From an uncultured Chloroflexia bacterium (GTDB lineage Bacteria; Chloroflexota; Limnocylindria; Limnocylindrales; CSP1-4), in the NCBI GenBank assembly GCA_963713795.1, contig CAVQNC010000009.1:13978-77977 (forward strand): 64,000 nt of DNA, given 5' to 3'. The position numbers and the translations under genes were made by a program. Positions 24,228-54,438 of the stretch are shown piece by piece (position 1 is the stretch's first letter; every line of letters starts with the position of its first letter). Under the pieces are notes generated by a model, which saw only the letters and a list, made by a program, of their open reading frames with translations, was not told where the DNA came from and searched no databases.

Positions 24228-24427
24228 GTCCGGACCGGCCGGCATGGTCCGATCGGGCCGGTCCGTAAGGGTCCGGCCGATGACGTTGCCGGGCCGCGGG
24301 TGGGACCCGGCCGCCGTCGGGCCGGTCCGAGGTAATGTTCGGATACTCAGTTTGGTCACAGCCCGGCGCCGCCTGCCCGCGGTTTCCATGGCACGGTCGG
24401 TCGGGCGATCACGGGAAGGAGGCTTGG

Positions 24428-25647: not shown

Positions 25648-25987
25648 AGCGCGCTGCGCTCGGCATCCAGCGCTCGAGATCGGGCCGCCGGGGTGGCCGC
25701 CAGGTTCTGGCGCGAGCCCGGCTACGGCGTGTCGGCCCGCGAACGCGCGCCGCCCGCGGGCGTCCGCCGGGTCACGTCGGCGCTGCCGGCGCCTGGCAAG
25801 GTCTTGACTTCGCTGGCACAATCTTTCCGTATCAGGCCAGGCCGAGGCCGGGTGGATACCACCCAGGTTTCACGCGGGCCGCCGTCGCGTCGTCTTGCTC
25901 ACACCGGGTCGGCACCCGACGGCAGCCGCCGCGAGACACCAATTGCCCTCGCCGCACGGCGGGCGTGGGCCGCATGCAGGTGACCGG

Positions 25988-28625: not shown

Positions 28626-28703
28626 GGCGGCTGGACACCCCGCCAACCCCACCACAGCGAGCAATCGCCGGTCCCGTCCAGGGACGGCAGAAAGAGGAGC
28701 CAG

Positions 28704-29600: not shown

Positions 29601-29609
29601 GGACCGGCC

Positions 29610-30443: not shown

Positions 30444-31214
30444 TCAGAGCTCGGCGTTGACGATAAATCCCCCGTCGACGAGAAGCGTGGCGCAGGTCAC
30501 GTAGGTCGCGTCGTCGGAGAGAAGATAGGTGATCGCGCCCGCCATCTCCTCCGGCTCACCGGGGCGGTGGATGGCGATCCGGTCGACGTAGTACTTCCAG
30601 ACCTCGGGCGCCGCGTCGAACATGGGCGCGCTCATGTTGGTCTTGATCCAGCCCGGCTCGACGGCGTTGACCCGGATCCCGTGCTCTCCCAGGTTGCAGC
30701 CGAGAGCCTTGGCCAGCATCGAGATGGCGCCCTTGGTGCCGCAGTATGCGGTCTGGTAGGGCGCACCAACGTGGGCCGAGATCGAGCTGGTGCAGCAGAT
30801 GGCGCCGCCGTGGCCCTCCTTGATCATCTGCTTGGCGCCCTCCGTGCAGACCACCCAGGTCCCGCGGACGTTGGTCTCCATGAGGTTGTTGAAGTCCTCG
30901 AGGCTCGTCTCGTCCCACTTCATGAAGGGGTTGATTGCCGCGTTGGAGACGACGTAGTCGAGCCGGCCGCCGCGCTCGGCGACCTCGTGGACCATGCGGA
31001 TGACCTGCTCCGGGTCGCGCATGTCGGCCACGACGGGAAAGCCGTCTCCGCCTGCCTCCTTGATCCGGCGCATCGTCTCGGTCGGGTCGCCGGTGGGCCG
31101 CTGGTTCACACCCACCAGCGCACCTTCCGCGGCCAGGCGCACCGCCGTCGCCTGCCCGATTCCGTTCGTGGCTCCGGTGACCAGGGCGACCTTGCCGACG
31201 AAACGCTTTTCCAT
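30444..31214 (-). CDS. Short-chain dehydrogenase/reductase (SDR)
   Basis: VTGATNGIG cofactor motif, S...YCGTK catalytic pattern, 256 aa. Confidence 0.9.
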   Translation of the reverse strand: MEKRFVGKVALVTGATNGIGQATAVRLAAEGALVGVNQRPTGDPTETMRRIKEAGGDGFPVVADMRDPEQVIRMVHEVAERGGRLDYVVSNAAINPFMKWDETSLEDFNNLMETNVRGTWVVCTEGAKQMIKEGHGGAICCTSSISAHVGAPYQTAYCGTKGAISMLAKALGCNLGEHGIRVNAVEPGWIKTNMSAPMFDAAPEVWKYYVDRIAIHRPGEPEEMAGAITYLLSDDATYVTCATLLVDGGFIVNAEL

Positions 31215-31284
31215 GGGGATCCTCCGAATGTCTGACCTGTGCCTGGATTTGGCGGGCGCCGCGCGGGGCGCGGCGTGACCGTTG

Positions 31285-32064
31285 TCAGTGCATGCCGCGG
31301 CCGCCCGCGACGATGAGCAGTTCGCCGGTGATGAAGGCGGCCTCGTCCGAGGCCAGAAAGACGGCGGACGCGGCGACGTCGCCCGGCGTGCCCCAGCGCT
31401 TCAGGGCCGTCTCGTCGAGGATTCGCTGCTGCGTAGCCGGGTCGATCTCCTCGACCATGTCGGTCCTGATCCAGCCGGGGCAGATAGCGTTGACCCTGAT
31501 CTGCGGCCCCAGGGCCAGGGCCATCGCCTTCGTCAGGCCGTTCAGGCCGGCCTTCGACACTACGTACTCGGTGAAGCGCATCGCCGACGGGTGGTAGAGG
31601 CCCGAGTTGGACGACATGTTGATGATGGAGCCGGAGCCCTGGCGGATCATCACTGGGGCCACCGCCTTGGAGCAGAGGTAGGCTCCTTTGAGGTTGACGT
31701 CGATCGTCAGATCCCAGTCCTCCTCTGTCGTCTCCAGCACTCCCTTCGGGATCATCACGCCGGCGTTGTTGACCAGGATGTCGACTCGGCCGAAACGATC
31801 GAGCGCCTGATCGACCAGGCGCCTGACGTCCGCGCTACGCGAGACGTCGGCCCCGACGGCGAAGGCTGATCCGCCGACTGCCTCTATGCCGGCGACGACC
31901 GCGGCCGCGTTGTTCGCCCCCTGGCTGAAGTTCACTACCACGGAGGCTCCACTGGCCGCGAACCGCTCGGCGACCGCGCGGCCGATGCCCCGCGACGCGC
32001 CGGTGACTATCGCAACTTTGCCCGCCAGTTGCCCTTCGGCCATCGCCGTCTCCTCGTGATCCAT
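31285..32064 (-). CDS. Short-chain dehydrogenase/reductase (SDR, FabG-like)
   Basis: VTGASRGIG, NNAG, S...YVVSK motifs. The start may be the Met at 32043 instead. Confidence 0.9.
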   Translation of the reverse strand: MDHEETAMAEGQLAGKVAIVTGASRGIGRAVAERFAASGASVVVNFSQGANNAAAVVAGIEAVGGSAFAVGADVSRSADVRRLVDQALDRFGRVDILVNNAGVMIPKGVLETTEEDWDLTIDVNLKGAYLCSKAVAPVMIRQGSGSIINMSSNSGLYHPSAMRFTEYVVSKAGLNGLTKAMALALGPQIRVNAICPGWIRTDMVEEIDPATQQRILDETALKRWGTPGDVAASAVFLASDEAAFITGELLIVAGGRGMH

Positions 32065-37016: not shown

Positions 37017-37125
37017 GGTCTCCTCCTGTTGTGGCCTCCATCCGATCGTCTTGAGTTGCCGGTTCGGCCGTCCCTGCGACAGATGATCGCCGCGGCGGTA
37101 TCCCCGGCCACGGACCGCCCCAAAC

Positions 37126-39413: not shown

Positions 39414-40601
39414 TCAGCGGCCCTGCTCGAGCATGGTCAGCAGCCCGCCGTGGAGCGGGCCGCGCGGCATGATCGGCCAGATGTCCACTACGCGATCGTT
39501 CTCGACAACGTGGTAGGCGTCGAAGTAGTTGACGGCGAATGGCGTGTAGCCGAGATGGAAGTCGACCACGTCGCCCACCTTGAGCGGGCAGGCGGGGTCG
39601 GCGTCGTAGGTCGCGTGCTCCTCGTCGAACCGGTATGGCTTCAAGTCCTCGAATCCGAAGATACGAGGGTATGAAGGGATGTTGCCGACGTCGGCCGCCC
39701 CAAAGGTCTTCTTTCCCAGGTTGAGGACGACCCGATCCTTGCGCCGGCTGATGACCGTCACCACCGCCGAAGTCGCCTTCTTGAAACTCGGCTCCATCAG
39801 AAAGTGGAAGTCGTCCATGGCCGCGTAGGAGCCCAGCTGGAGCTCGGTTATGCGCGGGTCCGCCCCGGTCCAGAAGGCCGTGGCCGTCCCGGCCGCCGAT
39901 AGGATCGGGCAGGCCACGCCGTTGGCCTCGAGCAGGTCCGCGACCTCGACGAAGTACCGCATCGCCGCGGCCTGCTTCTGATGCCGTTTCTCGTTGTCCA
40001 TCTCCATCGAACAATGGCCCTCGTAGCCCGAGAGCCCTTCCATGATCAGGCCAGGCAGCTCCCGGACGCGCCTGGCGACTGCCAGGGCCTCCTCGGGAGA
40101 ATCGACGCCGGCCCGGTGCATGCCTGTATCGACCTCGACCAGGACCCCGATCGTGGTGCCGGCGTCGACTGCGGCCGCCGACAGCGCCTCGGCATCCCCT
40201 GGGTCATCGACGTTTACGATGACCCGCGCCTCGCGGGCCAGGAGGGCAGCGGCGCGACGCTTCTCCGGAGTGACGAGCTCGTTGGCGATGAGGACGTCGG
40301 CGGCGCCCGCGCGAACCATGACGATCGCCTCCCAGATCGTCGCCGCGCACAGGCCGAAGGCACCGTGCTCGAGCTGCATCCGGGCGATGTGCGGGCTCTT
40401 GTGGTTCTTGACGTGGCCCCTGAGACGGGCATGAAGACCGGGCAGCCGCGACTGCATGTACTCGAGATTAGTTCGCAGGATGTTCTTGTCGACCACCAGG
40501 GCCGGCGTCACCACGTCGTACTTGCTGCCGCCGATGGCGGACCCGTACATTTCGCGAACACGCTGGTGAGCGTCGACGATGAGCGGCGCCGGCTCTCGCA
40601 T
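39414..40601 (-). CDS. D-threonine aldolase / DSD1-like PLP enzyme (alanine-racemase N-terminal fold), paralog 1
   Basis: ATG at 40601 after GGAAGGAG. TPALVVD...LRGHVKNHKSPHIA (PLP-Lys context) plus a C-terminal D-serine-dehydratase-like beta domain. The track ORF extension to 41237 is an artefact. Confidence 0.85.
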   Translation of the reverse strand: MREPAPLIVDAHQRVREMYGSAIGGSKYDVVTPALVVDKNILRTNLEYMQSRLPGLHARLRGHVKNHKSPHIARMQLEHGAFGLCAATIWEAIVMVRAGAADVLIANELVTPEKRRAAALLAREARVIVNVDDPGDAEALSAAAVDAGTTIGVLVEVDTGMHRAGVDSPEEALAVARRVRELPGLIMEGLSGYEGHCSMEMDNEKRHQKQAAAMRYFVEVADLLEANGVACPILSAAGTATAFWTGADPRITELQLGSYAAMDDFHFLMEPSFKKATSAVVTVISRRKDRVVLNLGKKTFGAADVGNIPSYPRIFGFEDLKPYRFDEEHATYDADPACPLKVGDVVDFHLGYTPFAVNYFDAYHVVENDRVVDIWPIMPRGPLHGGLLTMLEQGR

Positions 40602-40660
40602 CCGATTCACTCCTTCCGGCCTCACGGCGGGGCATCTGACGGGACGCGGGTCGCTCGGCC

Positions 40661-41863
40661 CTATTCTCCGCGCTCGAGCATGTCGAGAAGCCAGCGCGAC
40701 TCCGGGCCCCGGGGCATGACCGGCCAGACGTCGGTCACGCGGCCGTTCTCCATCACGTGGTACGCCTCGAAGTACCCGATCGCGTTCGGCGTGTAGTTGC
40801 AGCGGATCTCGAACTTGTCGCCGACCTTGACCGGATCCGACGGATCCACGAGGAAGATCGAATGCTCCTCGTCGAAACGGAAAGGCTTGAGGCCGTCCGG
40901 GGCAAGGACGCCCTGAGACGCGCCGACGGTCTTGTTGCCGGCGTCGAGGACGATCCGGTCGGATCGGCGGCTGATCACCGTGGCGAGAACGGTCACCGCC
41001 CAGCCGAACCTGGGATCCAGGCCGCGGTGGTGTCCGTCCATGGTGGCGTATGACCCGGGCTGGATCTCCGTAATACCCGGGTAGCGCGACGTGATTTCCC
41101 ACGTCCCGGTGCCCGCGGCAGTCACGATCTCGCAAGGGAATCCGTTGGCTCCGAGATGGTCGGCGACGCCCGTCAGGAAGGCCATGGCCACCTTGGCCAT
41201 GGCGCGGCGCTTGGCCTCGTCGAACTCGAGCGAGCAATGGCCTTCATAGCCGGTCAGACCGACGAGCTTGAGCCCGGGCGAAGCCGCGATCTTGCGGGCC
41301 AGGACGAGCGCCTCCTCGGCCGAAGCCACGCCGCAACGATGCATGCCTTCGTCCACGTCGATGAAGACCCCGATCGTGCTTCCGGCGGCCGTCGCGGCCC
41401 TTGAGAGTTCCTCGATCTGGCCCGAGTCGTCGACCGCGACCTTGACGTCAGCCTCGCGGGCGAGCAGAGCCAGGGCGCGAGTCTTCTCCGGGCCCACGAC
41501 TTCGTTGATCACGAAGACGTCGTTGATGCCGGCTCGAGCCATGACGATGGCCTCCCAGACCGTCGCGCAGCCGACGCCGATGGCTCCGTACTCCACCTCC
41601 AGCCGGGCGATGTGGGGGCTCTTGTGAACCTTCACGTGGGCCCGCAACGTCGTCGGAACACCCTGCATGTGCTCGGCCATGAAGCCCAGGTTTGCCTTGA
41701 GGACGCCGAGATCGAGCAGGAGGGCGGGAGTAGTCAGATCGTCGCGGCCCCGGCCCATGGCCGGGGCGTACAGGTCGCGGACCTGCTGATGGCGCGACTT
41801 GATCAAGGACGCCGGCTCCGGCATTTGCTGGCTCTGCACGGTATTCACGTCTTCCTTTTCCAT
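40661..41863 (-). CDS. D-threonine aldolase / DSD1-like PLP enzyme, paralog 2
   Basis: TPALLLD...LRAHVKVHKSPHIA. Collinear with paralog 1 throughout. Start is ATG 41863, with a later Met possible. Confidence 0.85.
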   Translation of the reverse strand: MEKEDVNTVQSQQMPEPASLIKSRHQQVRDLYAPAMGRGRDDLTTPALLLDLGVLKANLGFMAEHMQGVPTTLRAHVKVHKSPHIARLEVEYGAIGVGCATVWEAIVMARAGINDVFVINEVVGPEKTRALALLAREADVKVAVDDSGQIEELSRAATAAGSTIGVFIDVDEGMHRCGVASAEEALVLARKIAASPGLKLVGLTGYEGHCSLEFDEAKRRAMAKVAMAFLTGVADHLGANGFPCEIVTAAGTGTWEITSRYPGITEIQPGSYATMDGHHRGLDPRFGWAVTVLATVISRRSDRIVLDAGNKTVGASQGVLAPDGLKPFRFDEEHSIFLVDPSDPVKVGDKFEIRCNYTPNAIGYFEAYHVMENGRVTDVWPVMPRGPESRWLLDMLERGE

Positions 41864-41895
41864 CGACGGTACTTGACGACAGCTATCTCGGGTAT

Positions 41896-42981
41896 TTACT
41901 GAGAGCTCCCCCGGGCCGTGATGGGCCACTGGTCGACTATCTCGCCGCCGCGAGTGACCCACACGTGGTCGTGGAGGTTGAACGTGGTCCTGATCTGGCC
42001 CGGAGTGAGATCAACCCCGCTGCCCAGTGCGGGCAGCGGATCGTCCATGATCAAGGTCGTGTGCTCGTCGCTGACCATGATTTCCTTCACGGCCAACCCG
42101 ACCGGGATTGGAGCTCCGTATTCCATCCCAACGACGCGTCTGCCGACGTCCGTGACGATTCGGCCGGGGTGGCGGCTGATGACGGTCCCCCTCAGCACCG
42201 CGGCGCATCGGAACGGCAGATCCATGATCAGCAGCTCCGGCTCCATCAGGGCGTATACGCCAGCCTGGATCTCGGTGATCGTCGGGTCGGCCAGCGCTTC
42301 TCTGAGTGTCGACGTGCCGGCAGCCGAAACGACTTCCGGCGGGAAGCCGGCTTCGCGCAACGCCGAGGCCGCTTCCGAAAGGGCTCCGTAGGCGCGCCGG
42401 ATCTTGCCGCTACGCTCCTTGTCGGTTATTCGGAGACGACCTTCATAGCCCATGACCCCGCGCAGGCGGAGACCCGGCAGGCGCTCGATCTTGTGGGCCA
42501 GGGCGATGGCGTCTCGAGGCGATGCCACGCCGCAGCGGTGCAGGAGGATATCCATGTCGATCAGGACCCCGACGGTCACGCCTGCCGCGTCGGCCTCGCG
42601 CGAGAGAACCTCGACGGGTGCGGCGTCGTCGACGGCAACCGAAACCAGGGCCCGGTGGGCCAGAGCGACCAGGCGGGCGATCTTGCGCGGATCCACGACC
42701 TCGTTGGCCACGAAGACGTCCTCGAGCCCTGCGTCGACCATGGCTTCGGCCTCGCCCACCGTGGCGCAGGTGAGACCCGACACGGAAGGGCCCAGCTGGC
42801 GCCTGGCCAGCTCGGGCGTCCGATGAGTCTTGACATGGGGCCGAAGCAGCTTGCCTGTGCCGCGCAGCAAGGTGGCCATTGCGGCGACGTTGGCCTCGAA
42901 GACGCCGAGATCGACGATGAGCGCGGGGGTTGACAGAGATGGTGGGGATTTGGGTTCTATCGGCGACGATGCGGGCGTCAT
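41896..42981 (-). CDS. D-threonine aldolase / DSD1-like PLP enzyme, paralog 3 (more divergent)
   Basis: TPALIVD...LRPHVKTHRTPELA. Same two-domain layout, 361 aa. Confidence 0.8.
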   Translation of the reverse strand: MTPASSPIEPKSPPSLSTPALIVDLGVFEANVAAMATLLRGTGKLLRPHVKTHRTPELARRQLGPSVSGLTCATVGEAEAMVDAGLEDVFVANEVVDPRKIARLVALAHRALVSVAVDDAAPVEVLSREADAAGVTVGVLIDMDILLHRCGVASPRDAIALAHKIERLPGLRLRGVMGYEGRLRITDKERSGKIRRAYGALSEAASALREAGFPPEVVSAAGTSTLREALADPTITEIQAGVYALMEPELLIMDLPFRCAAVLRGTVISRHPGRIVTDVGRRVVGMEYGAPIPVGLAVKEIMVSDEHTTLIMDDPLPALGSGVDLTPGQIRTTFNLHDHVWVTRGGEIVDQWPITARGSSQ

Positions 42982-42994
42982 GACCGTGCCTCTC

Positions 42995-44444
42995 TCAGCC
43001 CGCGGCCAGACGCGAACGAACGTCCGCGTACAGGGCGCCTCTGTGGGTATCGGGCTCGAAGCGCCTGTTCACCGTCACGAGCTCGGCGACGGCTTCGGAC
43101 ACTGAACCGTAGACGCCGGCGCCGACGCCGGCCAGGACCGCGGCCCCGAAAGTGCCGGGTTCGCTCTGGGCCACGACCTCGATCGGGACCCCGCACACGT
43201 CGGCCATGAGCTGGAGCCACCAAGCGTTCCTGGAGCCGCCGCCGGTCGCCCGAACGAGGTTCGTCTCGACGCCTCGTTTCTGAAGCCGCTCCAGGCTCAA
43301 CGAGAAGTTGCAGGCAATGGCCTCCAGGAGAGCCCGGACGATGTCGACCTGCGTAGAAGCCAGGGTCACGCCGGAGAATGTGCCGCCGAAACCGGGCGCG
43401 GCCGAGACATGAGGAAGAGGCGTAAAGGCCGCGTCGGCGAACACGTGGCCGGGCCCGGGGCCCGCGCCGGCCAGACCCTCTTCCAGGTCCGGAATCGAGA
43501 GATGAGCCAGCTCTCGGAACCAGTCGATGACGCTCATCCCATTCGGGTCGGTCGCCAGGACGCCGAACCCGGTCGGACCCGGGTGCGGGAAGACGTTGAA
43601 CCCGTCGTGAACCAGCTCCACCGGCCAGCCGGGCAGAACCGGCACGTTGTAGGAATGCCACGTCCCGCAGGCCAGGGCGATGACCCCCGGGTCGACGGCC
43701 CCGGACCCGACCGAGGCGGCGTAGGTGTCGTAGGCGCCGGTCACGACGAGTGTGTCCAAGGGGAGGTCGAACTCCATGGCCGCTTCTCGCAGGATCGTCG
43801 CGATGGGCGTCCCATTGGGCTGGACCTCAGGCAGCCACTTCGGATCGATGCCGGTCTCGGCGATGCGTTCCGGCGACCAGTCGCCCGTGGCGACGTCGTA
43901 GGTCGCCCACGTGCCGGCGTCACTCCAATCGACGACCGGCCGGCCGGTCAACAGGAGCGAGTAGAACTCGTGCCAGTTCATGAACCAGCGGGCCCTGGCG
44001 GCGACTCCGGGGTTCGTCCGCCGCCACCACAGAGCCCGGTTGATCGGATCCATGCGCCGCGGCACATGACCTGTCAGGCGGAACCAGTCCTCCGGCGACC
44101 GGCGCCCGGCCGTCTCGGCGGCCACGTCGTCTCCCCTGATGTCGGGCGTCATCAAGCAGACGCCGAGCGGGGTGCCGTCCTCGGATACCGGAAACACCTC
44201 ACGGCCGGACGAGCTGAACGAGATGGCGACCGGCGGGTCGTTCTTGACGCGCATGTCGGCAGTCACCGCCCCCAGGGCGGCCCTGAACGCATCCCGCGAA
44301 TTCGAAGACGTTCACTTCCCAATGACCGGGCTCGGGCCGGTAACCCGGCACCGCCCGGGCCGCCTGCGCCAGCATCGTGCCGTTCGTCGCGTATGCGACG
44401 ACCTTGATCGCGCTCGTACCCAGGTCTATCCCGATGAGGCTCAT
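42995..44444 (-). pseudogene. FGGY-family carbohydrate kinase (xylulokinase-like) with a frameshift near 44288-44303
   Basis: The N-terminal 49 aa (MSLIGIDLGTSAIKVVAY...GHWEVNVFEF) are in the 44199-44444 ORF. The rest (RDAFRAALGAVTADM...AISFSSSGRE...) is in the 42995-44266 frame. Deleting one base in GAATTCGCGGGATG (minus strand) restores FEFRDAFRAALGAV. Confidence 0.8.
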
Positions 44445-44504
44445 CCTTGTGGCTCCTGCAGGCGCACTCGCGCATCCGGCCGCGCCGACGATCCGTTGGC
44501 GCGG

Positions 44505-44969: not shown

Positions 44970-46439
44970 CTAGGCCTCGCTGATGGCTTCGCCCGCGTTG
45001 AGGAGCCACTCCTCCTTCCCTCGTGCGCGCATCCAGAAGAGGATGGCGATGCCCAGGACGAACCAGATGACATCGATGATCGGCGCGAGGTTATAGGGCG
45101 ACCCCGGCGCCGAGCCGTACCCGGCCGGCGGGAAGAACGTGAACCAGATGGCCAGGATCAGGACTATCGACGAGAAGAGCGGGAAGACCAGGTGGAGGAG
45201 CCAGTTGAACTCCGCCCGGTGCTCGCCCCGGTAGAACATGAAGACGCCGAGGTTGGCCATCAGGTACACGAAGGTAACGGCGATGACCAGGATCAGGCCA
45301 TCGATGAGGTAGAACGACACGTCCGGACCGTAGATGAACCCGACCGTAAGCGCGGACACGAGCGAGAGCGCCATCTGCATCAGGATCGCGTTGGTCGGCG
45401 ACTTGTACTTCGGGTCGACCTTGGCGAGGATCTTCGGGAACGAGCCGCTGCGGGCCATGCCGTACCACATGCGGCTGCTCACGTTGGCAGTGGCGAGGCA
45501 GACCGCGAACACGCTGTTGATGAAGGCGACGAGCAGGACCCACCAGAGCGCGCCCCAGAGGTGATGGGCGAGCACGAGGGCCGGCAGCTCGGAGCTGGCG
45601 GTAACGGCCGAGACGTCGTTGACGCCGAAGCCAGTGATCAACCCGTAGAAGACGATTACGAGGAACACCCCGATCAGGACGATCGAGAGGATCACCGAGA
45701 GCGGGACGTTGCGCTTGGGATTGGTAGTTTCCTCGGCGAGGGGCGCGGCGCCCTCCCAGCCCGTCAACGCCTGGACGTTGAAGATGATGGCCAGGGCGAA
45801 CCCGGCCGCGCTGCCGATGTTGGCGGGATTGAACGGAGCGAGCGAAACACCGCCCGGGCCGGGGCTCAGGATGCCGGAGATGCCGAGGGCGAACACGATC
45901 AGCATCTCGAGGCCGCCGGTGATCACCATGAACTCGGCCGAGAGCTTGATCCCGCGATGCTGCACGTAGGCGACGAACGGCGCACCGACCACGATGCACA
46001 CCCACCACAGCCACGGCACGTTGATGTTCCAGTTGTCCTTCAGCTCACCCTGCAGGATGAAACCGAGGAACCCGTAGATCGCGCCGCCGCAGAGCGGCGA
46101 GTAGAAGATGTACATCCAGGCCGTCATGAAGCCGGCCCGTGGATGGATGGACCGGCTCACGTATGTGTAGTACGAGCCTGCGGACGGCAGGTACTTCGCG
46201 AACTGGATGAGGGTGCTGCCCAGCATCAACACGAGCAGGAAGCCCAGGAAGTAGGCCAGAGGCGCAGTTATGCCGGCGTACCCGACGACCACGGCCGTGT
46301 AGAAGAAGGCGGCGATGGCGGGCGAGATGTGGGTGATCGCCTGCATCGTGGCGCCGAGGAGCCCGATTGCGTCCTTTTCGAGATCCCTGTGTAGAGCGCC
46401 ACTACTCGGGGCCCCCGACTCAGTGGCAACGTTGGTCAT
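44970..46439 (-). CDS. APC-superfamily amino acid permease (copy 2)
   Basis: 489 aa, polytopic, paralog of the 37600-39093 gene. Confidence 0.85.
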   Translation of the reverse strand: MTNVATESGAPSSGALHRDLEKDAIGLLGATMQAITHISPAIAAFFYTAVVVGYAGITAPLAYFLGFLLVLMLGSTLIQFAKYLPSAGSYYTYVSRSIHPRAGFMTAWMYIFYSPLCGGAIYGFLGFILQGELKDNWNINVPWLWWVCIVVGAPFVAYVQHRGIKLSAEFMVITGGLEMLIVFALGISGILSPGPGGVSLAPFNPANIGSAAGFALAIIFNVQALTGWEGAAPLAEETTNPKRNVPLSVILSIVLIGVFLVIVFYGLITGFGVNDVSAVTASSELPALVLAHHLWGALWWVLLVAFINSVFAVCLATANVSSRMWYGMARSGSFPKILAKVDPKYKSPTNAILMQMALSLVSALTVGFIYGPDVSFYLIDGLILVIAVTFVYLMANLGVFMFYRGEHRAEFNWLLHLVFPLFSSIVLILAIWFTFFPPAGYGSAPGSPYNLAPIIDVIWFVLGIAILFWMRARGKEEWLLNAGEAISEA

Positions 46440-46810: not shown

Positions 46811-47818
46811 GTGCGGGAGCGGGATGCGGCCGCAAGCGCCTGGCTGGACGGCCGACCGATCGACCGGTATCATTCTGTTGTGTTTCAGATTCGCGAACGC
46901 CATCGCGCGCGTGCCGTCGACGATCTCGTCCCCGTGCTCGCGCGCCAGTTCCTGATCGCCCCCGAGCCACCCTCGCGGCTCGCGACGGTGCGGGAGCTGG
47001 CTCGCCAGCACGGCTCCAGTCTCTCGTCGATCCACTTCGCGATCAGCCGCCTGGTCGACGCGGGCGCGGTCGACATAGAGATGCGGGGTCGGCTCGGAGC
47101 CTTCCTCGTGGGACGCTCGGTCGGGCGGTTGTGGGCCCTCGCGGAAAACGGCAGGCCGCTCGTCGTGGCTCTCCCGCTCGCTTCCTCGCTTCGCTACGAG
47201 GGACTCGCGACGGCGCTGAAGCAGACCCTGTCCCGCGCCGACCTCGAAGTCTTCCTCATCTTCGTCCGGGGATCCCGTAAGCGCCTCCAGGCGGTCCGGG
47301 AGGGGCGATGCCACCTGGCCGCGATGTCGAGCTTCGCTGCCTCGGAACTGTGCGGCCCGGAAGACTCAGTTCTGATCGAGCTCCCTGCCCTCACTTACAA
47401 CACCGGGCACCGCGTCTTCTACACCGCCGCCGCCGCGGACCAGGATCCGCGGACCGTCATCATCGACCGCGATTCGGCGGATCAGCAGCTCCTGTCCACG
47501 CTCGAATTCAACGGGGCGAACGTCCGGCTCGTCGGGGCCATGGGCGTCCAGATAGCCCGGCTGCTGGCCGAGGGTCATGGCGACGCCGCCGTGTGGACTA
47601 TCGACGAGATGCGAGTCCGGTGGCCCGACGGGGTGCTCGACCGGCCGCTATCCCAATCCGTCCGCGACCAGGTCGGCGATCGAGACACTCGCGCGGCGCT
47701 TGTGGGCCAGGCCTCCGACGCGGCTGTGCTTGGCGCAATCACGGCCTCCATCGACCCTGAAGAGGTGGAGCGGATCCAGCTCGACGTGATGAACCTTCGG
47801 GTCGTACCCGAATACTGA
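46811..47818 (+). CDS. YhfZ-like regulator (GntR-type wHTH + periplasmic-binding-protein-like C-terminal domain)
   Basis: ATVRELARQHGSSLSSIHFAISRLVDAGAVDIEMRGRLGAFLV parallels my recollection of E. coli YhfZ (...LGAIELETRGRNGTFI). A long non-HTH C-terminal domain follows. The start could be the GTG at 46880. Confidence 0.6.
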   Translation: MRERDAAASAWLDGRPIDRYHSVVFQIRERHRARAVDDLVPVLARQFLIAPEPPSRLATVRELARQHGSSLSSIHFAISRLVDAGAVDIEMRGRLGAFLVGRSVGRLWALAENGRPLVVALPLASSLRYEGLATALKQTLSRADLEVFLIFVRGSRKRLQAVREGRCHLAAMSSFAASELCGPEDSVLIELPALTYNTGHRVFYTAAAADQDPRTVIIDRDSADQQLLSTLEFNGANVRLVGAMGVQIARLLAEGHGDAAVWTIDEMRVRWPDGVLDRPLSQSVRDQVGDRDTRAALVGQASDAAVLGAITASIDPEEVERIQLDVMNLRVVPEY

Positions 47819-47851: not shown

Positions 47852-48814
47852 ATGAGCCAGATGGGCGCGAACCTGCTCCTGTCGATGTACGAGACGGCGA
47901 CAACCATCCGCAAGTTCGAACAGAAGGCCATCGAGCAATACCGCGTGGGCAACATCCGTGGGTACTTTCATCCGTACCTGGGCGAGGAAGGGATAGCCGT
48001 CGGCGCGATCGCGGCCCTCGAGCCGGATGACTACATCGTCAGCACCCATCGCGGCCACGGACACGCGATTGCGAAGGGGCTCGAACCCAGGCAGATGATG
48101 GCCGAGCTGTTCGGCAAGGAGACCGGGTACTGCCGCGGACGGGGCGGATCGATGCACGTTGCGAGCCGATCGGTCCGAAGCCTTGGAGCGAACGGGATCG
48201 TCGGCGGCGGGCTGGCCATCGCCGACGGTGCCGCGATGGCGATCAAGCAGCGGGGCGAGTCGCAGGTCGTCGTAGCGTTCTGCAGCGACGGCTCATCGGC
48301 CAACGGCATCTGGCACGAATCGCTCAACCTGGCAGCCATCTGGGATCTGCCGGTCATCTTCGTCCTCGAGAACAACCAGTACGCCGTCTCGACCCCGATT
48401 CGGGACTCCGCTCGCGTAGACCATCTTTCCGAGCGGGCTGCCGGCTACGGTATGCCCGGCCTGACCGTGGACGGCAACGACGCCGCCATCGTCTACGGTG
48501 CGATGCAGGAACCCCTGCGCCGGGCACGGGCAGGCGAAGGTCCGACTCTGCTCGAGTGCATGACCTATCGCCACGGCGGCCACCATGTCAACGACCCGGG
48601 GCTCTACCTGCCCGCCGACGAACTGAAGCGCTGGAAGGAGCACGACCCCTTGATCGTCCTGCGCCAGCGCCTGGCTCTGGCCGGGGTCGAGGAAGCCTCC
48701 GTCACGGCCGTGGACGAGCGCGTCGAACGACTCATGGACGAGGCGGTCGCGTTTGCGGAGGCCAGCCCCAATCCGTCGCTCGACGAGTTCTGCGCCGAGG
48801 TCGCGATGCTGTAG
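47852..48814 (+). CDS. Thiamine-diphosphate-dependent dehydrogenase E1 component, alpha subunit (PdhA/AcoA-like)
   Basis: STHRGHGHAIAKG, GRGGSMH, GDGSSANG...NLAAIWDLPVIFVLENNQYAVST TPP motif. AAGGAGAA RBS. Confidence 0.9.
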   Translation: MSQMGANLLLSMYETATTIRKFEQKAIEQYRVGNIRGYFHPYLGEEGIAVGAIAALEPDDYIVSTHRGHGHAIAKGLEPRQMMAELFGKETGYCRGRGGSMHVASRSVRSLGANGIVGGGLAIADGAAMAIKQRGESQVVVAFCSDGSSANGIWHESLNLAAIWDLPVIFVLENNQYAVSTPIRDSARVDHLSERAAGYGMPGLTVDGNDAAIVYGAMQEPLRRARAGEGPTLLECMTYRHGGHHVNDPGLYLPADELKRWKEHDPLIVLRQRLALAGVEEASVTAVDERVERLMDEAVAFAEASPNPSLDEFCAEVAML

Positions 48815-48896
48815 CTCTGGACGAGCCCAAACAGCACAATTCGACGGACGACGAAACCCCAGCCGGCTCAGCCGAGCCGAGAAGGAAGTTGGGACG

Positions 48897-49883
48897 ATGA
48901 AGTACCGCGAGGCCCTCCGGGCCGCCCTCAACGAAGAGATGGAACGGGACGAGTCGGTGTTCTGCATCGGCGAGGGGATCGGCGAACGCGGGGGCTCGTA
49001 CAAGGTCACCGAGGGGCTCCTTGCTGAGTTCGGCCCCGGCCGAGTCATCGACACGCCCTTGAGCGAGGCTGGTTTCGTCGGCATTGGCGTCGGAGCGGCG
49101 ATCGCGGGCCGGCGCCCGGTCGTCGAGATCCTGTTCATCGACTTCCTGCTGCAGACGATGGACCAGGTGGTCAACCAGGCCGCGAAATACCGCTTCATGT
49201 CGGGCGGCGAGGGCCGAGTCCCCCTGGTGATCCGCACGCAGGGAGGGACCGGCAATTCGCTGGCCGGCCAGCATTCTCAGAGCCTGGAGGCCCTCTACTA
49301 TCACGTGCCCGGGCTGAAGGTCGTAATGCCGTCGACGCCCGCCGATGCCAAAGGGTTGCTGAAGTCGGCCATTCGCGACGATGACCCGGTCATATTCATC
49401 GAGCACAAGCTGCTCTACATGACCGACGGCGAAGTTCCCGAGGCGGATTACTCCATCCCGCTCGGCAAGGCCGACATCAAGCGTGCCGGCACCGACCTCA
49501 CCCTGGTGGCCTGGTCGCACATGGTCCTCAAGAGCCTGCAGGCGGCCGAGGAACTTGCCAAAGAGGGCATCTCCGTCGAGGTCGTCGACCTGCGGACGCT
49601 CGTGCCCATGGATGTCCCCTGCCTGCTCGACTCGGTGAGGCGGACGGGGCGGCTCGTCATCGCCCAGGAGGCCATCAAGCGCGGCGGCGTTGGCAGCGAT
49701 GTCGCCGCCATCGTCGCCGAGCAGGCGTTCGACGCGCTTCGCGCCCCGATCGTTCGGGTAGCGGGGATGAACACCACGATCCCATTCAACCTGGCCCTCG
49801 AAAAGGCTGCCGTCCCGCAGGTCGCCGACATCGTGGCCGGCGTCAGGTCGGTGGTCGGGGCAGGCACAGCGAGCCGCGCGTGA
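48897..49883 (+). CDS. E1 component, beta subunit (PdhB/AcoB-like)
   Basis: MKYREALRAALNEEMERDESVFCIGEGIG, DTPLSEAGFVG, and a transketolase C-terminal-like domain. Confidence 0.9.
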   Translation: MKYREALRAALNEEMERDESVFCIGEGIGERGGSYKVTEGLLAEFGPGRVIDTPLSEAGFVGIGVGAAIAGRRPVVEILFIDFLLQTMDQVVNQAAKYRFMSGGEGRVPLVIRTQGGTGNSLAGQHSQSLEALYYHVPGLKVVMPSTPADAKGLLKSAIRDDDPVIFIEHKLLYMTDGEVPEADYSIPLGKADIKRAGTDLTLVAWSHMVLKSLQAAEELAKEGISVEVVDLRTLVPMDVPCLLDSVRRTGRLVIAQEAIKRGGVGSDVAAIVAEQAFDALRAPIVRVAGMNTTIPFNLALEKAAVPQVADIVAGVRSVVGAGTASRA

Positions 49884-51064
49884 GCGGGTCGGAACTGGTC
49901 GCGACTTACCTGGCGGAGCTGCCGGCCGAAGGGACGGAGGCAGCCGCCGAGGCCTTCGCGACCGGGCAGAGCATCGGGACATGGGTGCCGGTCCCTGGCA
50001 TCAGCGAGGAAATGCGGCGCCTCCACGGGGCCAGGGTCGTCGAGGTGACCCGCGATCGTCCGGCCGAAGAACTCGGCGGCGAGGCGAACGGCGACCTCTG
50101 GGTACTGAGGGTGGCCTTCCCAACGCCCAACTTCGGGGCTCAGTTCCCGATGATGCTGACCACCCTCGTCGGCAACGACCCGTCGACGTCTTTGACCGTC
50201 CGGCTGGTCGACATAGACCTGCCCGAAGCGTTCCGGGCCGAATTCCCCGGTCCGCAGATGGGGGTGGACGGCTGGCGCAGCCTGACCGGCGTGTGGGACC
50301 GGCCCTTGCTCCTGAACATGATCAAACCGTGCACGGGGTATTCGCCGAGCGCAGGGGCGGACCTGCTCGAGCAGCCGGCGCGGGGCGGCGCGGACCTGAT
50401 AAAGGATGACGAGCTCCTGGGCGACGCCCCGTTCAACCGCGTCGCCGAGCGCTCTCGCATATACCGCGAGCGCCTGGAACGAGTCGCCGAAGAGACAGGT
50501 CACCGGGCCCGGTACATCTGCAACGTGACCGACCGAGCGAGCCGGCTCATCGACACCGCCCGGGCGGCGGTCGACGGCGGCGCGGACGCGCTGATGGTGA
50601 ATGCCCTTGCCGTCGGGTTGGACCCGTTTCAGGCGCTCGTGGAAAGCAAGCCTGGAGTGCCCATCCTGGTCCACACCGCCACATCCGACGTCATGACGGG
50701 CGCAACCAGCTCGGGAATCGGACAGGCGCTGATCTTCGGCAAGTTCCTGCGTCTTGCCGGAGCGGATGCCGTCTTCACCACGACGCCCTTCGCCCGCCGC
50801 CCGCCCTCCGGACTCGTATATGAGAAAACTCTTCAGTGGATGAGGGAGCCGAGCGGGACTCACAAACCGACCATGCCGATGCTCGCCGGAGGCGTGACCG
50901 GCTCGATGATCGGATCCCTGGTCCGGCAGTCCGGCGTCGACGTCATGCTGGGGATCGGCGGCGGGATCCAGGGCCATCCGCGGGGCGCCGAAGCAGGAGC
51001 TCGAGCTGTTCGGGCCGCGATCGACGAAGCGATGCTCTCGATGGAAGCCGGCGCGCATGGCTGA
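49880..51064 (+). CDS. RuBisCO large-subunit-like protein (form IV RLP, MtnW/YkrW-like architecture)
   Basis: ATGQSIGTW, FPMMLTTLVGN, RPLLLNMIKPCTG, GGADLIKDDE, PILVHTA, GKFLRLAGAD, GIGGGIQGHPRG are collinear with RuBisCO/RLP blocks. The GTG start overlaps the E1-beta stop (GTGA). The stop overlaps the E2 start (ATGGCTGA). Confidence 0.88.
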   Translation: MSGSELVATYLAELPAEGTEAAAEAFATGQSIGTWVPVPGISEEMRRLHGARVVEVTRDRPAEELGGEANGDLWVLRVAFPTPNFGAQFPMMLTTLVGNDPSTSLTVRLVDIDLPEAFRAEFPGPQMGVDGWRSLTGVWDRPLLLNMIKPCTGYSPSAGADLLEQPARGGADLIKDDELLGDAPFNRVAERSRIYRERLERVAEETGHRARYICNVTDRASRLIDTARAAVDGGADALMVNALAVGLDPFQALVESKPGVPILVHTATSDVMTGATSSGIGQALIFGKFLRLAGADAVFTTTPFARRPPSGLVYEKTLQWMREPSGTHKPTMPMLAGGVTGSMIGSLVRQSGVDVMLGIGGGIQGHPRGAEAGARAVRAAIDEAMLSMEAGAHG

Positions 51065-51788: not shown

Positions 51789-52105
51789 GAGGAGGTCGAG
51801 ACGGGCCCTTCGCATTGATCGCGATCCACCTGCGCAGATACGTGCAATGTCATGCAACATCTTGACGCGGCGGCGTACCGGTACCTATCCTCTGTTCTCG
51901 GACGCCGATAGACCGCTTCGCCGATCCGGTCGAGATGGCCGGGCCGATCCTCTACGTCTGCTTCGAAGACGCCACGTTCCAGACGGGCGGCCTCAAGGTC
52001 GATGACGGCGGTGATTCGGTCAGGCTGCCGGTACGCGGCGCGCTGGACGAGCCGTTGGTCCCGGGCAGAGTCCGCTGGTCCAGGCCAGCCCCAGGAGGCC
52101 AAGTC

Positions 52106-53062
52106 ATGGCAATCGCTCAAGGCCCGAAGGTCACTCTCGCCGAGTTCGACCGCATCTTCGAATCGGTCAAGAACTGGGGCAAGTGGGGTCCCGACGACCA
52201 GCTCGGAACGCTGAACTACATCACCCGCGACAAGGTCCGGCAGGCCGCCGGTCTGGTGAAGTCGGGTCGCCGGGTCTCGATGGAGATTCCCATCAACAAG
52301 GCGGCGGGACCGGACAACCCGAACCAGGCCTTCCACTACGTCACCCAGAGCCACGACATCGACATCGGATCCAGCGGCCTCACCTTCGCTCTCGACTTCC
52401 TGGGCATGGCCTGCCACGGCGACTGCCACACTCACATCGACGCGCTCTGCCACATCGCCTACAAGGGCCAGACGTACAACGGCAAACCCGCCCTCGAGGT
52501 GATGACCAGCAAGGGAGCCACGTCCCTCGACATAACCAGCTACGGCAACGGTCTGGTGGGCCGCGGCGTCCTCCTGGACATCCCGCGGCTGCGGGGCGTC
52601 AAATGGCTCGAGCCGGGAGAGGCGGTCCGCCGAGAGGAGCTGGAGGCGTGCGAGAAGAGCATCGGCCTCGAACTCGGCGAGGGCGACATCCTCGTCTACC
52701 GGACCGGCCACCACCGGCGCCGGCTCGAACTCGGAGCGTGGAGCAACGACCCGCCGCCGGCCGGTGAAGGCAAGGCCGGCCTGCACGTCGACACCATCCC
52801 CTGGATGCACGAACGCAGGATCGCCGCCTTCCTGCCGGACGGCGACGGCGAAGCTGTACCGAGCGTCGTCGAGGGTATGACCTATCCCATCCATCCGCTC
52901 CAGATCACGGCGATGGGCATGCTCGCCTCCGACAGCCTCCAGTTCGAGGACCTGGCTCGGGCCTGCGAGGAGGAGGGCCGCTGGGAGTTCATGGTCGTGG
53001 GCCTGCCCCTGCGCCTCCCGGGCGGCACAGGCTCGCCCTGGAACCCGATCGCCATCTTCTGA
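52106..53062 (+). CDS. Cyclase-family protein (kynurenine-formamidase-like fold)
   Basis: ATG at 52106 after AGGAGG. WG.DDQLGTLNYIT, CHGDCHTHIDALCH (His-rich metal motif), GVLLDIPR, GDILVYRTG. Confidence 0.75.
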   Translation: MAIAQGPKVTLAEFDRIFESVKNWGKWGPDDQLGTLNYITRDKVRQAAGLVKSGRRVSMEIPINKAAGPDNPNQAFHYVTQSHDIDIGSSGLTFALDFLGMACHGDCHTHIDALCHIAYKGQTYNGKPALEVMTSKGATSLDITSYGNGLVGRGVLLDIPRLRGVKWLEPGEAVRREELEACEKSIGLELGEGDILVYRTGHHRRRLELGAWSNDPPPAGEGKAGLHVDTIPWMHERRIAAFLPDGDGEAVPSVVEGMTYPIHPLQITAMGMLASDSLQFEDLARACEEEGRWEFMVVGLPLRLPGGTGSPWNPIAIF

Positions 53063-53319
53063 TGGAGGCAGCGCGGGAGTCCCGCCCGAAGCGACGGAGG
53101 AGGACGCCTGACACGAACACGGCTTGATTCCGGGTCTTGCCGAGAGCCGACTGGTACCGCGCCGGAGAGTCGGTCGAGGAGCGGCCCGCGACGGTCGATG
53201 AAATCGAAGCCCTGAAGGGCGAGTGTCTACCCGCCGCCGGGCGACGGGTAGACACAGAAAGTCCAACGCTCGAGCACGTTGCCAGCGACCCGCTCGAGCC
53301 CTTCCGCGGAGGTGTAACC

Positions 53320-54438
53320 ATGCCTGAGCTGTTCGGACGCTCCTACTCTCGGTCGGATCTCCTGCGTCACGTCGGCAGGCTCGAGCAGGTGGCCGGCGTC
53401 CGGCTGGTCACCCTGGACGACAGCCTCGGCCGTGGCGTGCGGGTGATCGAGTTCCGGACCGGCTCGGGCTTCTCCTTCGACGTCGTCGTCGATCGCTGCT
53501 TCGACATCGGCCGGTGCGAGATCGGAGGCCGCCCCCTCAACTGGCAGTCGAACGCGGGGATCGTGGGGCCGTGGTACTACGAAAACGACGAATGGGGCTG
53601 GTTCCGAGCCTGGGGCGGCGGCATGGTCGTGACCTGCGGCCTCGATCACACCCTCCTGTCGGGTGAGGACGACGCCAGCGACTTTCACCAGACTCATATC
53701 TTCAAGACGGTCTCGTACGGCCTCCACGGTCGCGTGGGCGGGCTGCCGGCCCGGCTCGTCGGCTACGGCGAGCGCTGGGACGGCGACGAGTGCGTCCTCT
53801 GGGCCGAGGGCGAAGTGCTCCAGTCGGCGATCTTCGGCGAGCATCTGCTGCTGCGCCGCCGGATCGAGGCACGCGTAGGAGAGTCGCACTTCACGATCCA
53901 CGACGAGGTCGAGAACGTCGGCCACAGCCGCGTCTCGCACATGCTGCTCTACCACTGCAACGCGGGATTCCCGGTGGTGGACGATGGGTCCAGGCTCCTC
54001 GTCCCCTCGCTCAAGACGACCACGGACTACGACGTGACGCCCGAGCTGATGGCCAGCTACCGGACGCTCACCGGACCGATCAAGGACTACAGCGAGAAGT
54101 GCTTCGAGCACGAACTGGTGGCCGAGAAGGACGGCAAGGTTCCGGTCGCGGTCGTGAACGAGAAGCTCGGATTGGGCGTCTACCAGGTCTTCCGGATCGG
54201 TCAGCTGCCTCACCACACGGTCTGGCGGATGATGGGCGAAGACACCTACGCCCTGGCCATGGAGCCGGGCACCAACCGCGACGCCGGCCGCTGGGACGCC
54301 AAGGAGCGCGGCGAGCTGCTCCACATGGAACCCGGCGAGATCCGCCCGTACGACCTGGAGATCGGCGCCCTGGTGGGCGACAAGGCGATAGCAGGATTCG
54401 AGAGCCGTGTAGAGCGGCTCGCACACGCACAGGGGTAG
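53320..54438 (+). CDS. Aldose-1-epimerase-fold protein (DUF4432-like)
   Basis: ATG at 53320 after GGAGGTG. GRGVRVIEFRTGSGF.F.V..DR..DI, GLHGR, LLYHCN.GFP blocks as in the DUF4432/mutarotase-like superfamily. Confidence 0.65.
   Translation: MPELFGRSYSRSDLLRHVGRLEQVAGVRLVTLDDSLGRGVRVIEFRTGSGFSFDVVVDRCFDIGRCEIGGRPLNWQSNAGIVGPWYYENDEWGWFRAWGGGMVVTCGLDHTLLSGEDDASDFHQTHIFKTVSYGLHGRVGGLPARLVGYGERWDGDECVLWAEGEVLQSAIFGEHLLLRRRIEARVGESHFTIHDEVENVGHSRVSHMLLYHCNAGFPVVDDGSRLLVPSLKTTTDYDVTPELMASYRTLTGPIKDYSEKCFEHELVAEKDGKVPVAVVNEKLGLGVYQVFRIGQLPHHTVWRMMGEDTYALAMEPGTNRDAGRWDAKERGELLHMEPGEIRPYDLEIGALVGDKAIAGFESRVERLAHAQG

Follow-up and report, generated by a model that had tools for sequence, protein, structure and literature searches.

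A RuBisCO-like protein gene within a conserved, clade-specific E1/E2 dehydrogenase operon of an uncultured Chloroflexia bacterium

We analysed a 64,000-nucleotide stretch of contig CAVQNC010000009.1 from an uncultured Chloroflexia bacterium (hereafter the window), in which the gene of a form-IV RuBisCO-like protein (RLP) lies inside an operon of the lipoyl-dependent dehydrogenase type. Upstream of it are the genes for the alpha and beta subunits of E1, a thiamine pyrophosphate (TPP)-dependent dehydrogenase, and downstream is the gene of an E2 acyltransferase reduced to its catalytic core, all on the plus strand. This operon type is real, conserved and so far undescribed, and the coupling between its parts is looser than the first-pass annotation of this DNA had supposed. 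The link between E1 and the RLP is real but clade-specific, and the bacteria that carry the E1-linked RLP operon form a clade from soil and fresh water. In the full-text literature searched, key subscription papers being outside its reach, no published account was found of an RLP associated with an E1, lipoyl or acetoin-type system, nor of the present RLP subfamily. The earlier claim that no RLP had been described in a TPP/lipoyl dehydrogenase operon is thus borne out by the searchable literature.

The RLP open reading frame (ORF) matches the catalytic barrel (PF00016, E 5.9e-35) and the N-terminal domain (PF02788, E 1.1e-6) of RuBisCO, and its GC content at third codon positions, 0.83, is ordinary for genes of the window (68% GC). 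The GTG at 49880 is a credible start: no start codon precedes it in the ORF, and alignments with homologues begin at about residue 3. Read directly from the sequence, this start overlaps the E1-beta stop by 4 nt (GTGA, 49880-49883) and the RLP stop overlaps the E2 start by 8 nt (ATGGCTGA, 51057-51064). No terminator-like sites were found between E1-alpha and E2. The first-pass annotation had described both overlaps, as well as a 394-aa form-IV RLP between E1-beta and a catalytic-only E2, and the ORFs and Pfam domains agree with it. It had also argued from the overlaps for obligatory co-expression. This fits the transcription unit of the present genome, but not the biology of the family, where about 90% of the sampled RLP loci outside the window clade have no E1 and most of the sampled E1 loci no RLP. 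Overlapping junctions are not universal either, a point that had been overlooked: gaps among relatives run from -8 to +60 nt, with packing always tight. Pfam scans of essentially all plausible ORFs of the window revealed no rbcS, prk, mtn or E3 gene, in line with the earlier statement that small-subunit and phosphoribulokinase genes are missing.

Active-site positions of the RLP were mapped by motif and checked in an alignment of 86 family members and two sequences of MtnW, the methionine-salvage enolase. The carbamate/Mg site of RuBisCO (K201/D203/E204) corresponds to Lys175 (nt 50402-50404), Asp177 and Glu178, within GGADLIKDDE at residues 169-178, and is invariant across the 86 members. Equally invariant are the equivalents of T65/W66, K175 (Lys149), H294 (His265), G380/G381 and G403/G404. 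The block GIGGGIQGHP occupies residues 358-367, with GGGIQGHP at 360-367; it had been reported as retained together with GGADLIKDDE, and we located both in the translation. The motif IKPC (residues 148-151) keeps the K175 equivalent and places a cysteine, Cys151 (nt 50330-50332), at the K177 position, also as reported, and this cysteine proves invariant in 86/86. Position E60 is Gly in most family members and S379 is Ala or Gly. The residues that hold the second phosphate of ribulose-1,5-bisphosphate (RuBP) are gone (R295T, H298S, H327F/L), which is expected for a monophosphate substrate. The signature of the subfamily is Asn99, Lys149-Pro-Cys151, KDDE and His265. Judging by these residues, the RLP belongs to a distinct form-IV subfamily that is catalytically intact and whose substrate would be a monophosphate.

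E1 is of the pyruvate/acetoin-dehydrogenase type. E1-alpha does not reach the equivalog level for pyruvate dehydrogenase (PDH) E1-alpha (TIGR03182, 337 bits against a cut-off of 394). Its best solved match is human PDH E1-alpha (203 bits), and its homologues were automatically named both acoA and pdhA by JGI pipelines. E1-beta scores 416 bits against NF006667, where the cut-off is 321. In the translations, the TPP motif (...SDG...ENN...) and the active-site His residues of E1 are kept. The core E2 has no lipoyl domain and no E3-binding domain in Pfam, and it retains the catalytic motif DHRLIDG (DHRxxDG) when aligned to the human PDC E2 core 3b8k. A free-standing lipoyl carrier of 89 aa, overlooked by the first-pass annotation, is encoded 6 kb from the core E2 on the opposite strand. 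It matches the lipoyl domains of AcoC, SucB and PDH E2, and orthologues are present in nearly all related loci. From its domain content, this free lipoyl protein probably supplies the arm missing from the core E2, and together the two amount to a split E2. The scanned ORFs of the window include no E3 (Pyr_redox-type ORF); E3 is frequently encoded elsewhere in genomes. When compared with the acetoin (AcoA/AcoB/AcoC/AcoL) and pyruvate dehydrogenases, the system shares the heterodimeric TPP-dependent E1, the lipoyl carrier and the PF00198 acyltransferase with DHRxxDG. It differs in the division of E2 into two proteins without an E3-binding domain and in the RLP gene between E1-beta and E2.

The conservation of the E1-RLP link was assessed in loci with an RLP score of 520 bits or higher (roughly 64% identity and above) and with at least 2.2 kb of upstream sequence available; related loci are numbered here with an L. 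E1-alpha/beta lie upstream, on the same strand and within 4 kb, in 17/17 such loci of the window RLP clade, and the four loci of this clade without E1 have no upstream sequence. After collapsing at 90% identity, the link is seen in 14/14 assessable clusters (19 clusters in all). The possibility, raised earlier, that the E1/E2 adjacency is unique to this genome is therefore rejected. Neighbour joining places the E1-linked RLPs (L001, L003-L007, L087, L088 and that of the window) in one clade, sister to a clade associated with an aminotransferase.

Gene order varies within the E1-linked clade. The window, L089 and L091 share YhfZ-E1a-E1b-RLP-E2-cyclase. Other orders are E1a-E1b-SDR-RLP-E2-HAD-aldolase-HAD, E1a-E1b-SDR-RLP-TIM and E1a-E1b-SDR-RLP-DUF4432-cyclase, where SDR is a short-chain dehydrogenase/reductase, HAD a haloacid dehalogenase-type phosphatase and TIM a triosephosphate isomerase paralogue. 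The last order, lipoyl-E1a-E1b-RLP-TIM, is that of L087, L088, L093, L094, L097, L098 and L100, with 4-nt overlaps at the junctions of E1b, RLP, TIM and the next gene in L087 and L088. A core E2 follows this string in L088 and L098 and is truncated in L087. Neighbours of the L087-type operons include a SorC regulator, an alcohol dehydrogenase, and ComB-like and PEP_hydrolase-like genes. In relatives, the orthologous SDRs are found beside the lipoyl gene and between E1-beta and the RLP. The SDR pair of the window is located 13-17 kb upstream, and the direct E1-beta/RLP junction is thus a local rearrangement.

In L087/L088 and L003, the FGGY-family kinase found near many RLPs is replaced by UPF0261 and PEP_hydrolase-like or PPDK_N/PEP-utiliser-like proteins. 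A gene for a ComB-like 2-phospho-acid phosphatase is also present in L087, L088 and L026. These replacements and the ComB-like gene may reflect an alternative phosphorylation system and a 2-phospho-acid by-product.

Some loci outside the window clade were also considered. L026 (Christensenellaceae) was discounted as an independent case of the E1-RLP link: it has E1a-E1b-E2 (E3-binding PSBD domain plus core) followed by an ORF that has a lipoyl domain at its start and is cut off by the end of the locus, which resembles an ordinary acetoin-dehydrogenase operon, and TPR, SorC and XylB genes separate this string from the RLP. An actinobacterial arrangement, E1-E2 / GntR / HAD-aldolase-(TIM)-RLP, occurs in L065, L070, L125 and L127, with E1 of a fused or distant type. 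L070 and L065 are kept as weak support for the link; the kinase beside their RLP is GlpK-like, and their E1 is fused and distantly related.

The RLP subfamily as a whole is much larger than the E1-linked clade. A scan of one genome per species with the motifs NMIKPCTG and DL[IV]KDDEL gave confirmed relatives in at least 528 species, spanning Chloroflexota, Actinomycetota and Bacillota, including cultured gut Clostridia. Gene context was taken from 80 loci each of genomes and metagenomes and from those of exact-protein look-ups, all screened with reference proteins drawn from Pfam-annotated neighbours. The commonest partners of the RLP are the TIM paralogue, RpiB and an FGGY kinase, with a phosphotransferase system (PTS) instead of the kinase in Bacillota.

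The sister clade in Chloroflexota has the operon GntR-(APC permease)-aminotransferase-FGGY-RLP-TIM-RpiB (L002, L008-L013, L027, L028, L031, L036, L061, L110, L120, L128, L129, L131). Its aminotransferase meets the hisC equivalog cut-off (283 against 276.6 bits). Enzymes of the HisC type interconvert amino-alcohol phosphates and 2-keto-1-phosphates, and the operon suggests amino-polyol catabolism through a 2-keto-1-phosphate. In Bacillota the operon is PTS (EIIC-GAT, EIIA-2, EI)-RpiB-TIM-RLP, and cultured Enterocloster, Clostridium, Muricomes and Caproiciproducens are among its carriers. In basal Chloroflexota a DhnA/LsrF-family aldolase adjoins the RLP, and in actinomycetes a class II aldolase and a HAD phosphatase are often nearby. 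Aldolases, TIM and the HisC-type enzyme all handle a CH2OP-CO-CHOH head group, the part of RuBP that RuBisCO deprotonates, from which we infer that the family acts on ketose-1-phosphate-like substrates.

The TIM-RpiB pair found with most members of the family recalls the erythritol/threitol tetrose-phosphate isomerases (EryH/TpiA2 with EryI/RpiB; LerI/DerI). The RpiB proteins score 151-156 bits on the DerI model, under its cut-off of 240, and unlike the EryH/EryI-type pair, the RLP operons of the window clade have E1-alpha/beta instead of RpiB, which is absent from 23/23 of them. Replacement of RpiB by E1, in the sense of mutual exclusion, is not used as an argument, because L003 and E1 loci without an RLP have both.

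Cultured Bacillota that carry the RLP are gut and anaerobic Clostridia (L015, L021, L032, L054, L062, L067). Enterocloster lavalensis (L021) has the PTS (EIIC-GAT, EIIA-2, EI)-RpiB-TIM-RLP operon, L015 and L032 share the RpiB-TIM-RLP core, and L054, L062 and L067 differ in gene order. Muricomes intestini, Caproiciproducens galactitolivorans and Cnuibacter are further cultured members with an RLP of the family; among the loci examined, none with the E1-linked operon came from a culture.

The E1-RLP operon is part of one catabolic island that covers 24.3-54.4 kb of the window (Table 1). The YhfZ-type regulator in front of E1-alpha is conserved in related loci and scores 187 bits against NF041241 (cut-off 260). 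Behind E2, the cyclase-family protein recurs together with the DUF4432 protein in L001, L006, L007, L091 and L101. On the minus strand, the frameshift of the FGGY kinase is seen with tblastn, where the L006 and L005 orthologues match in two frames, with residues 18-69 in -3 and 68-505 in -1; the gene is either a pseudogene or carries an assembly indel. Similar fragmentation is seen in the related loci L084-L086, from long-read metagenome-assembled genomes.

Next to the kinase are three enzymes that depend on pyridoxal 5'-phosphate (PLP), whose nearest NCBIfam model is BhcC (198 bits, cut-off 690). A second APC permease (37600-39093, minus strand) adjoins this trio, and one to three PLP enzyme copies recur in L005-L007 and L111. 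PLP enzymes and permease together suggest an amino-acid-like substrate, possibly D-configured or polyhydroxylated. Also on the minus strand, at 36288-37485, a conserved protein of about 235 aa without Pfam match is paired with a SnoaL_2/DUF4440 protein. The former is 62-70% identical in L004, L005, L084 and L085 and 62-68% over partial alignments in L086, and the pair recurs in E1/lipoyl loci. Between the two SDRs and this pair, in this order, the island encodes a glyoxalase-fold protein, a SorC regulator, a sugar-isomerase-fold protein and an aldo-keto reductase.

At the far end of the island, the listed ORFs of RpiB and the TIM paralogue share about 105 nt. TIM probably starts further downstream, because its Pfam match begins at residue 38. 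The unit of 2-hydroxyacid dehydrogenase, LsrK and LsrF that follows stands beside the E1/lipoyl locus in L001, L004 and L084 as well (LsrK/LsrF 66-73% identical), and in L169-L171 by gene-family order. L105 has the 2-hydroxyacid dehydrogenase and an LsrK-like kinase only, at a contig end. LsrK and LsrF are at equivalog level, as in the Lsr pathway for autoinducer 2 (AI-2), whose substrates are of the class proposed below for the RLP and E1. Unlike that pathway, the island ORFs include no ABM-fold LsrG, the only small conserved ORF being SnoaL_2, and no LsrACDB (ABC) transporter.

Table 1. Features of the window, with positions counted from its first letter
Feature	Position	Strand	Remarks
RpiB	24335..24901	+	usual RLP-family partner, here 24 kb from RLP
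TIM paralogue	24796..25647	+	below all TIM equivalog cut-offs; 47% identical to RLP-adjacent TIM of L001
2-hydroxyacid dehydrogenase / LsrK / LsrF / RPE-like (ribulose-phosphate epimerase-like) unit	25895..30338	+	
LsrK	27045-28625	+	NF008187, 624 bits, cut-off 528
LsrF (3-hydroxy-5-phosphonooxypentane-2,4-dione thiolase)	28704-29600	+	NF006081, 498 bits, cut-off 297
RPE-like protein	29610-30338	+	
Two SDR oxidoreductases	30444..32064	-	84% and 79% identity to SDRs of relatives
Three tandem fold-type-III PLP enzymes (D-Ser dehydratase / D-Thr aldolase family)	39417..42981	-	PF01168, PF14031; 41896-42981, 40661-41962, 39417-40640
FGGY sugar kinase no. 1 (XylB-like)	42983..44456	-	below all equivalog cut-offs; one frameshift near 44301-44305
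Free-standing lipoyl-carrier protein, 89 aa	44505..44774	-	PF00364; lipoyl Lys in ...IETEKISLD...
APC-family amino-acid permease	44970..46439	-	PF00324, PF13520; divergent from E1 operon, position conserved
YhfZ-type GntR-family regulator	46811..47818	+	PF14503, PF14502; ends 33 nt before E1-alpha
E1-alpha, TPP-dependent dehydrogenase (pyruvate/acetoin-dehydrogenase type)	47852..48814	+	PF00676, E 4.7e-82
E1-beta	48894..49883	+	PF02779, PF02780; ORF opens at 48753, likely start ATG 48894
Form-IV RLP, 394 aa	49880..51064	+	GTG start; PF00016, PF02788
E2 acyltransferase, catalytic core only, 243 aa	51057..51788	+	PF00198 only
Cyclase-family metal hydrolase-like protein	51935..53062	+	PF04199
DUF4432 protein	53137..54438	+	PF14486, E 5.8e-92; recurs in related loci

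In terms of function, we tentatively propose that the RLP feeds E1, with the product of the RLP cleaved by E1 and the acyl group passed to CoA; this coupling is a possibility in which our confidence falls short of even. The FGGY kinase would make a phosphorylated substrate, and the carbamylated-Lys/Mg2+ site of the RLP would deprotonate the carbon beside the carbonyl of a mono-phosphorylated keto-sugar or diketone, for example a ketose-1-phosphate or a phospho-pentanedione-like compound. The outcome would be epimerisation or carbonyl migration. Proton abstraction beside a carbonyl is indicated by the carbamate/Mg site, by the single phosphate site and by the equivalents of N123, K175 and H294, and Cys151 is a candidate second acid/base. 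Carbonyl migration has a precedent in the Rhodospirillum rubrum RLP (DeepYkr, PDB 3qfw), where a ketose-1-phosphate becomes a 1-substituted xylulose-5-phosphate by 1,3-isomerisation (5-methylthioribulose-1-phosphate to 1-methylthioxylulose-5-phosphate). This enzyme differs from the window RLP in gene context, and its score to the latter is 117 bits, against 237 for MtnW. Another precedent for the reaction type is the misprotonation of the RuBisCO enediol to xylulose bisphosphate (PMC9833046).

The RLP would thereby convert the product of the kinase to an alpha-hydroxy-ketone or alpha-dicarbonyl phosphate. E1-alpha/beta, with TPP, would cleave this compound in the way acetoin dehydrogenase cleaves acetoin. 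The acyl group, acetyl or glycolyl, would move to the free lipoyl carrier and then to CoA through the core E2 where present, and the remaining triose phosphate would go to the TIM paralogue. Such a transfer of a keto-phosphate from the RLP to E1 is chemically plausible. In its most specific form, the product of the RLP would be a C5 methyl-ketone of the 1-deoxy-pentulose or pentodiulose-5-phosphate type, and the final products acetyl-CoA and glyceraldehyde-3-phosphate or 3-phosphoglycerate. The Lsr pentanediones, the 2,3-diketone phosphate used by MtnW and 1-deoxy-xylulose-5-phosphate are C5 methyl-ketone phosphates of one class. LsrK and LsrF process phosphorylated 2,3-/2,4-pentanediones to dihydroxyacetone phosphate (DHAP) and acetyl-CoA, and PDH-type E1 variants can make 1-deoxy-xylulose-5-phosphate. 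The LsrK/LsrF orthologues of the island thus lend some indirect support to this chemistry of the RLP and E1, and the C5 version fits these neighbours. The further claim, that the RLP with the split E1/lipoyl/E2 system constitutes a hitherto unknown route of oxidative C-C cleavage, leading from sugar phosphates to acetyl- or glycolyl-CoA and triose phosphate or 3-phosphoglycerate, is rather unlikely as judged at present.

Several observations weigh against a direct hand-over from the RLP to E1. The sequences of E1 and E2 most resemble PDH components. Outside the window clade, E1 is rare, with 1/16 and 5/93 of the loci that have upstream sequence. An ordinary 2-oxoacid for E1 could come from the divergent operon, with its amino-acid permease and its three PLP enzymes of the D-amino-acid type. 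In the E1-linked clade, the RLPs have extra Arg residues (R198, R306) not found in the rest of the family; by sequence, these hint at a substrate with a further anionic group, for instance a carboxylate, rather than at a neutral methyl ketone. Finally, looking up eight E1-alpha clusters by exact sequence gave seven loci (L084-L086, L169-L172) without RLP and core E2 within 9-10 kb and a single one with an RLP (L087/L088). E1-alpha identity to the window is 81-83% with or without the RLP, so that E1 does not appear to need the RLP for its substrate.

The same sample shows how the E1 locus is organised without an RLP. These loci contain aldolase-HAD-YhfZ-APC permease-(DUF4432)-SDR-lipoyl carrier-FGGY-PLP enzyme, followed by E1a-E1b, then SDR-(RpiB-TIM), and then 2-hydroxyacid dehydrogenase-FGGY-DeoC-family protein. 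More than 120 database clusters of E1-alpha are at least 79% identical to that of the window; they include loci with an RLP only 59% identical, and one cluster is labelled Coriobacteriia. E1-alpha is hence far more conserved than the RLP. The idea that E1 is always accompanied by the RLP is rejected by the seven loci above. Within the sampled loci of the E1 subfamily the core E2 was seen only beside the RLP, and the RLP always comes with a core E2 and/or a TIM paralogue. E1 and the lipoyl carrier are the core of a widespread locus, and the RLP, with E2 or TIM, is an accessory module and not an obligatory partner of E1. Under the coupled proposal, this module would act as an add-on feeder of the wider E1/lipoyl-carrier locus.

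The main rival explanation, itself on the unlikely side, is that E1, lipoyl carrier and E2 form an ordinary dehydrogenase of the pyruvate/2-oxobutyrate type that oxidises a keto acid released by the PLP enzymes from an imported compound resembling an amino acid. The RLP, FGGY kinase, TIM and aldolase would then serve a separate sugar-phosphate branch, and their adjacency would reflect co-regulation. Besides the likeness to PDH, this is favoured by the position of the lipoyl gene, which shares one minus-strand gene string with APC permease, FGGY kinase and PLP enzymes, and by the loci without an RLP, which retain E1, lipoyl carrier, permease and PLP enzymes. It is harder to reconcile with the L087-type operons listed above, which have no permease or PLP enzyme in their sequenced flank, with the core E2 being restricted to the vicinity of the RLP, and with an E1 that falls under the PDH E1-alpha equivalog cut-off.

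An improbable alternative is that the RLP acts on a phosphorylated keto-acid, and E1 is a true 2-oxoacid dehydrogenase for the alpha-keto isomer. The reaction of the RLP could be isomerisation of 3-oxo-tetronate-4-phosphate to 2-oxo-3-hydroxy-4-phosphobutanoate, or decarboxylation of a beta-keto acid as in the apiose pathway, with DHAP from this branch going to TIM. The RLPs of apiose pathways (OiaC/OiaX) resemble the present one in being part of a sugar-catabolic operon and acting after a kinase. Their product goes to TIM-like and RpiB-like tetrose-phosphate isomerases, the partner types also seen in this RLP family. They differ in the kinase, which in the family of the window is FGGY or PTS, and we know of no E1/E2 in apiose pathways. 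The model for OiaX (NF042437) gives the window RLP 154.7 bits, far under its cut-off of 700.

In favour of a keto-acid are the Arg residues just mentioned. The residues R198, A242, A283, R306 and W320 are specific to the E1-linked clade in the alignment, and R306/R307 fall in the region that aligns with loop 6 of RuBisCO. The SDRs, the 2-hydroxyacid dehydrogenase and the sugar-isomerase-fold protein of the island, the latter with a weak match to 2-oxo-tetronate isomerase, would fit as well. On the other hand, the kinase here is FGGY and not of the DUF1537 type that known acid-sugar pathways use, and RpiB, which often accompanies the RLP in other parts of the family, speaks for neutral sugar phosphates. 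The precedent for this kind of reaction is the decarboxylation and transcarboxylation of 3-oxo-isoapionate-4-phosphate by RLPs, as cited in PMC6302742.

That the RLP is MtnW itself (2,3-diketo-5-methylthiopentyl-1-phosphate enolase) is effectively refuted. Placement combined a bit-score ranking against the PDB, where 99 RuBisCO/RLP sequences match, with two MtnW sequences and NCBIfam models. The top solved relatives are indeed MtnW of B. subtilis (2zvi, E 5e-69) and G. kaustophilus (2oek, E 7e-66), followed by the Chlorobium RLP, R. palustris RLP2 and form III enzymes, with the R. rubrum RLP much further away, and many homologues carry the automatic JGI name of this enolase. However, identity to both MtnW sequences is only 35-36%, and the equivalog scores are far too low (TIGR03332, 248 bits against 513.6; NF007095, 270 against 409). 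MtnW and the window RLP share the fold, the KDDE site, the K175 and H294 equivalents and a single phosphate site, the second-phosphate site being lost in both. They differ at the N123 position, where both MtnW have Lys (Lys98 in G. kaustophilus, reportedly the catalytic general base; Imker et al. 2007) and 85-86 of the 86 family members have Asn (Asn99), and at the K177 position, where MtnW has Val or Met in place of the invariant Cys.

Gene context separates the two as well. No mtn gene (mtnK/A/B/X/D) was found in the window or in the 170 related loci screened with reference proteins, and the conserved neighbours are kinases, TIM, RpiB and E1/E2, mostly enzymes of sugar phosphates. Nesting of the RLP within MtnW, which had been named earlier as a reason to abandon the operon hypothesis, is thus contradicted by model scores, identity, Asn99 and context, and the MtnW label on homologues is a mis-annotation. 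With its Asn123 and Lys175 equivalents, the subfamily retains more of the enolisation apparatus of RuBisCO than MtnW does. As for a CO2-fixing RuBisCO, there is next to no chance of it: the large-subunit fold and the KDDE carbamate/Mg site are kept, but eight motif-checked positions are changed (E60G, T173M, K177C, R295T, H298S, H327F, S379A and an altered K334 loop) and the scanned window ORFs hold no prk or rbcS.

Known reactions of RLPs are of four kinds, namely proton abstraction (enolase), isomerisation, decarboxylation and oxygenation (PMC10176493), and PMC6302742 cites a transcarboxylase/hydrolase reaction for those of the apiose pathway. Each new RLP reaction has informed how RuBisCO chemistry evolved. 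Even on a conservative reading, the present analysis corrects a widespread annotation error, that of MtnW. The cultured Clostridia that carry the RLP are a tractable system for finding the substrate of the family, and the gene set of RLP, E1-alpha/beta, 89-aa lipoyl carrier and core E2 is tractable for biochemical assignment. If the RLP and E1 act in sequence, phosphorylated sugars or diketones would become substrates of a lipoyl-dependent E1, which would open a new route from sugars to acyl-CoA. Were the C-C cleavage route also true, it would represent a new RLP reaction and a class of E1 substrates that are neither 2-oxoacids nor acetoin.

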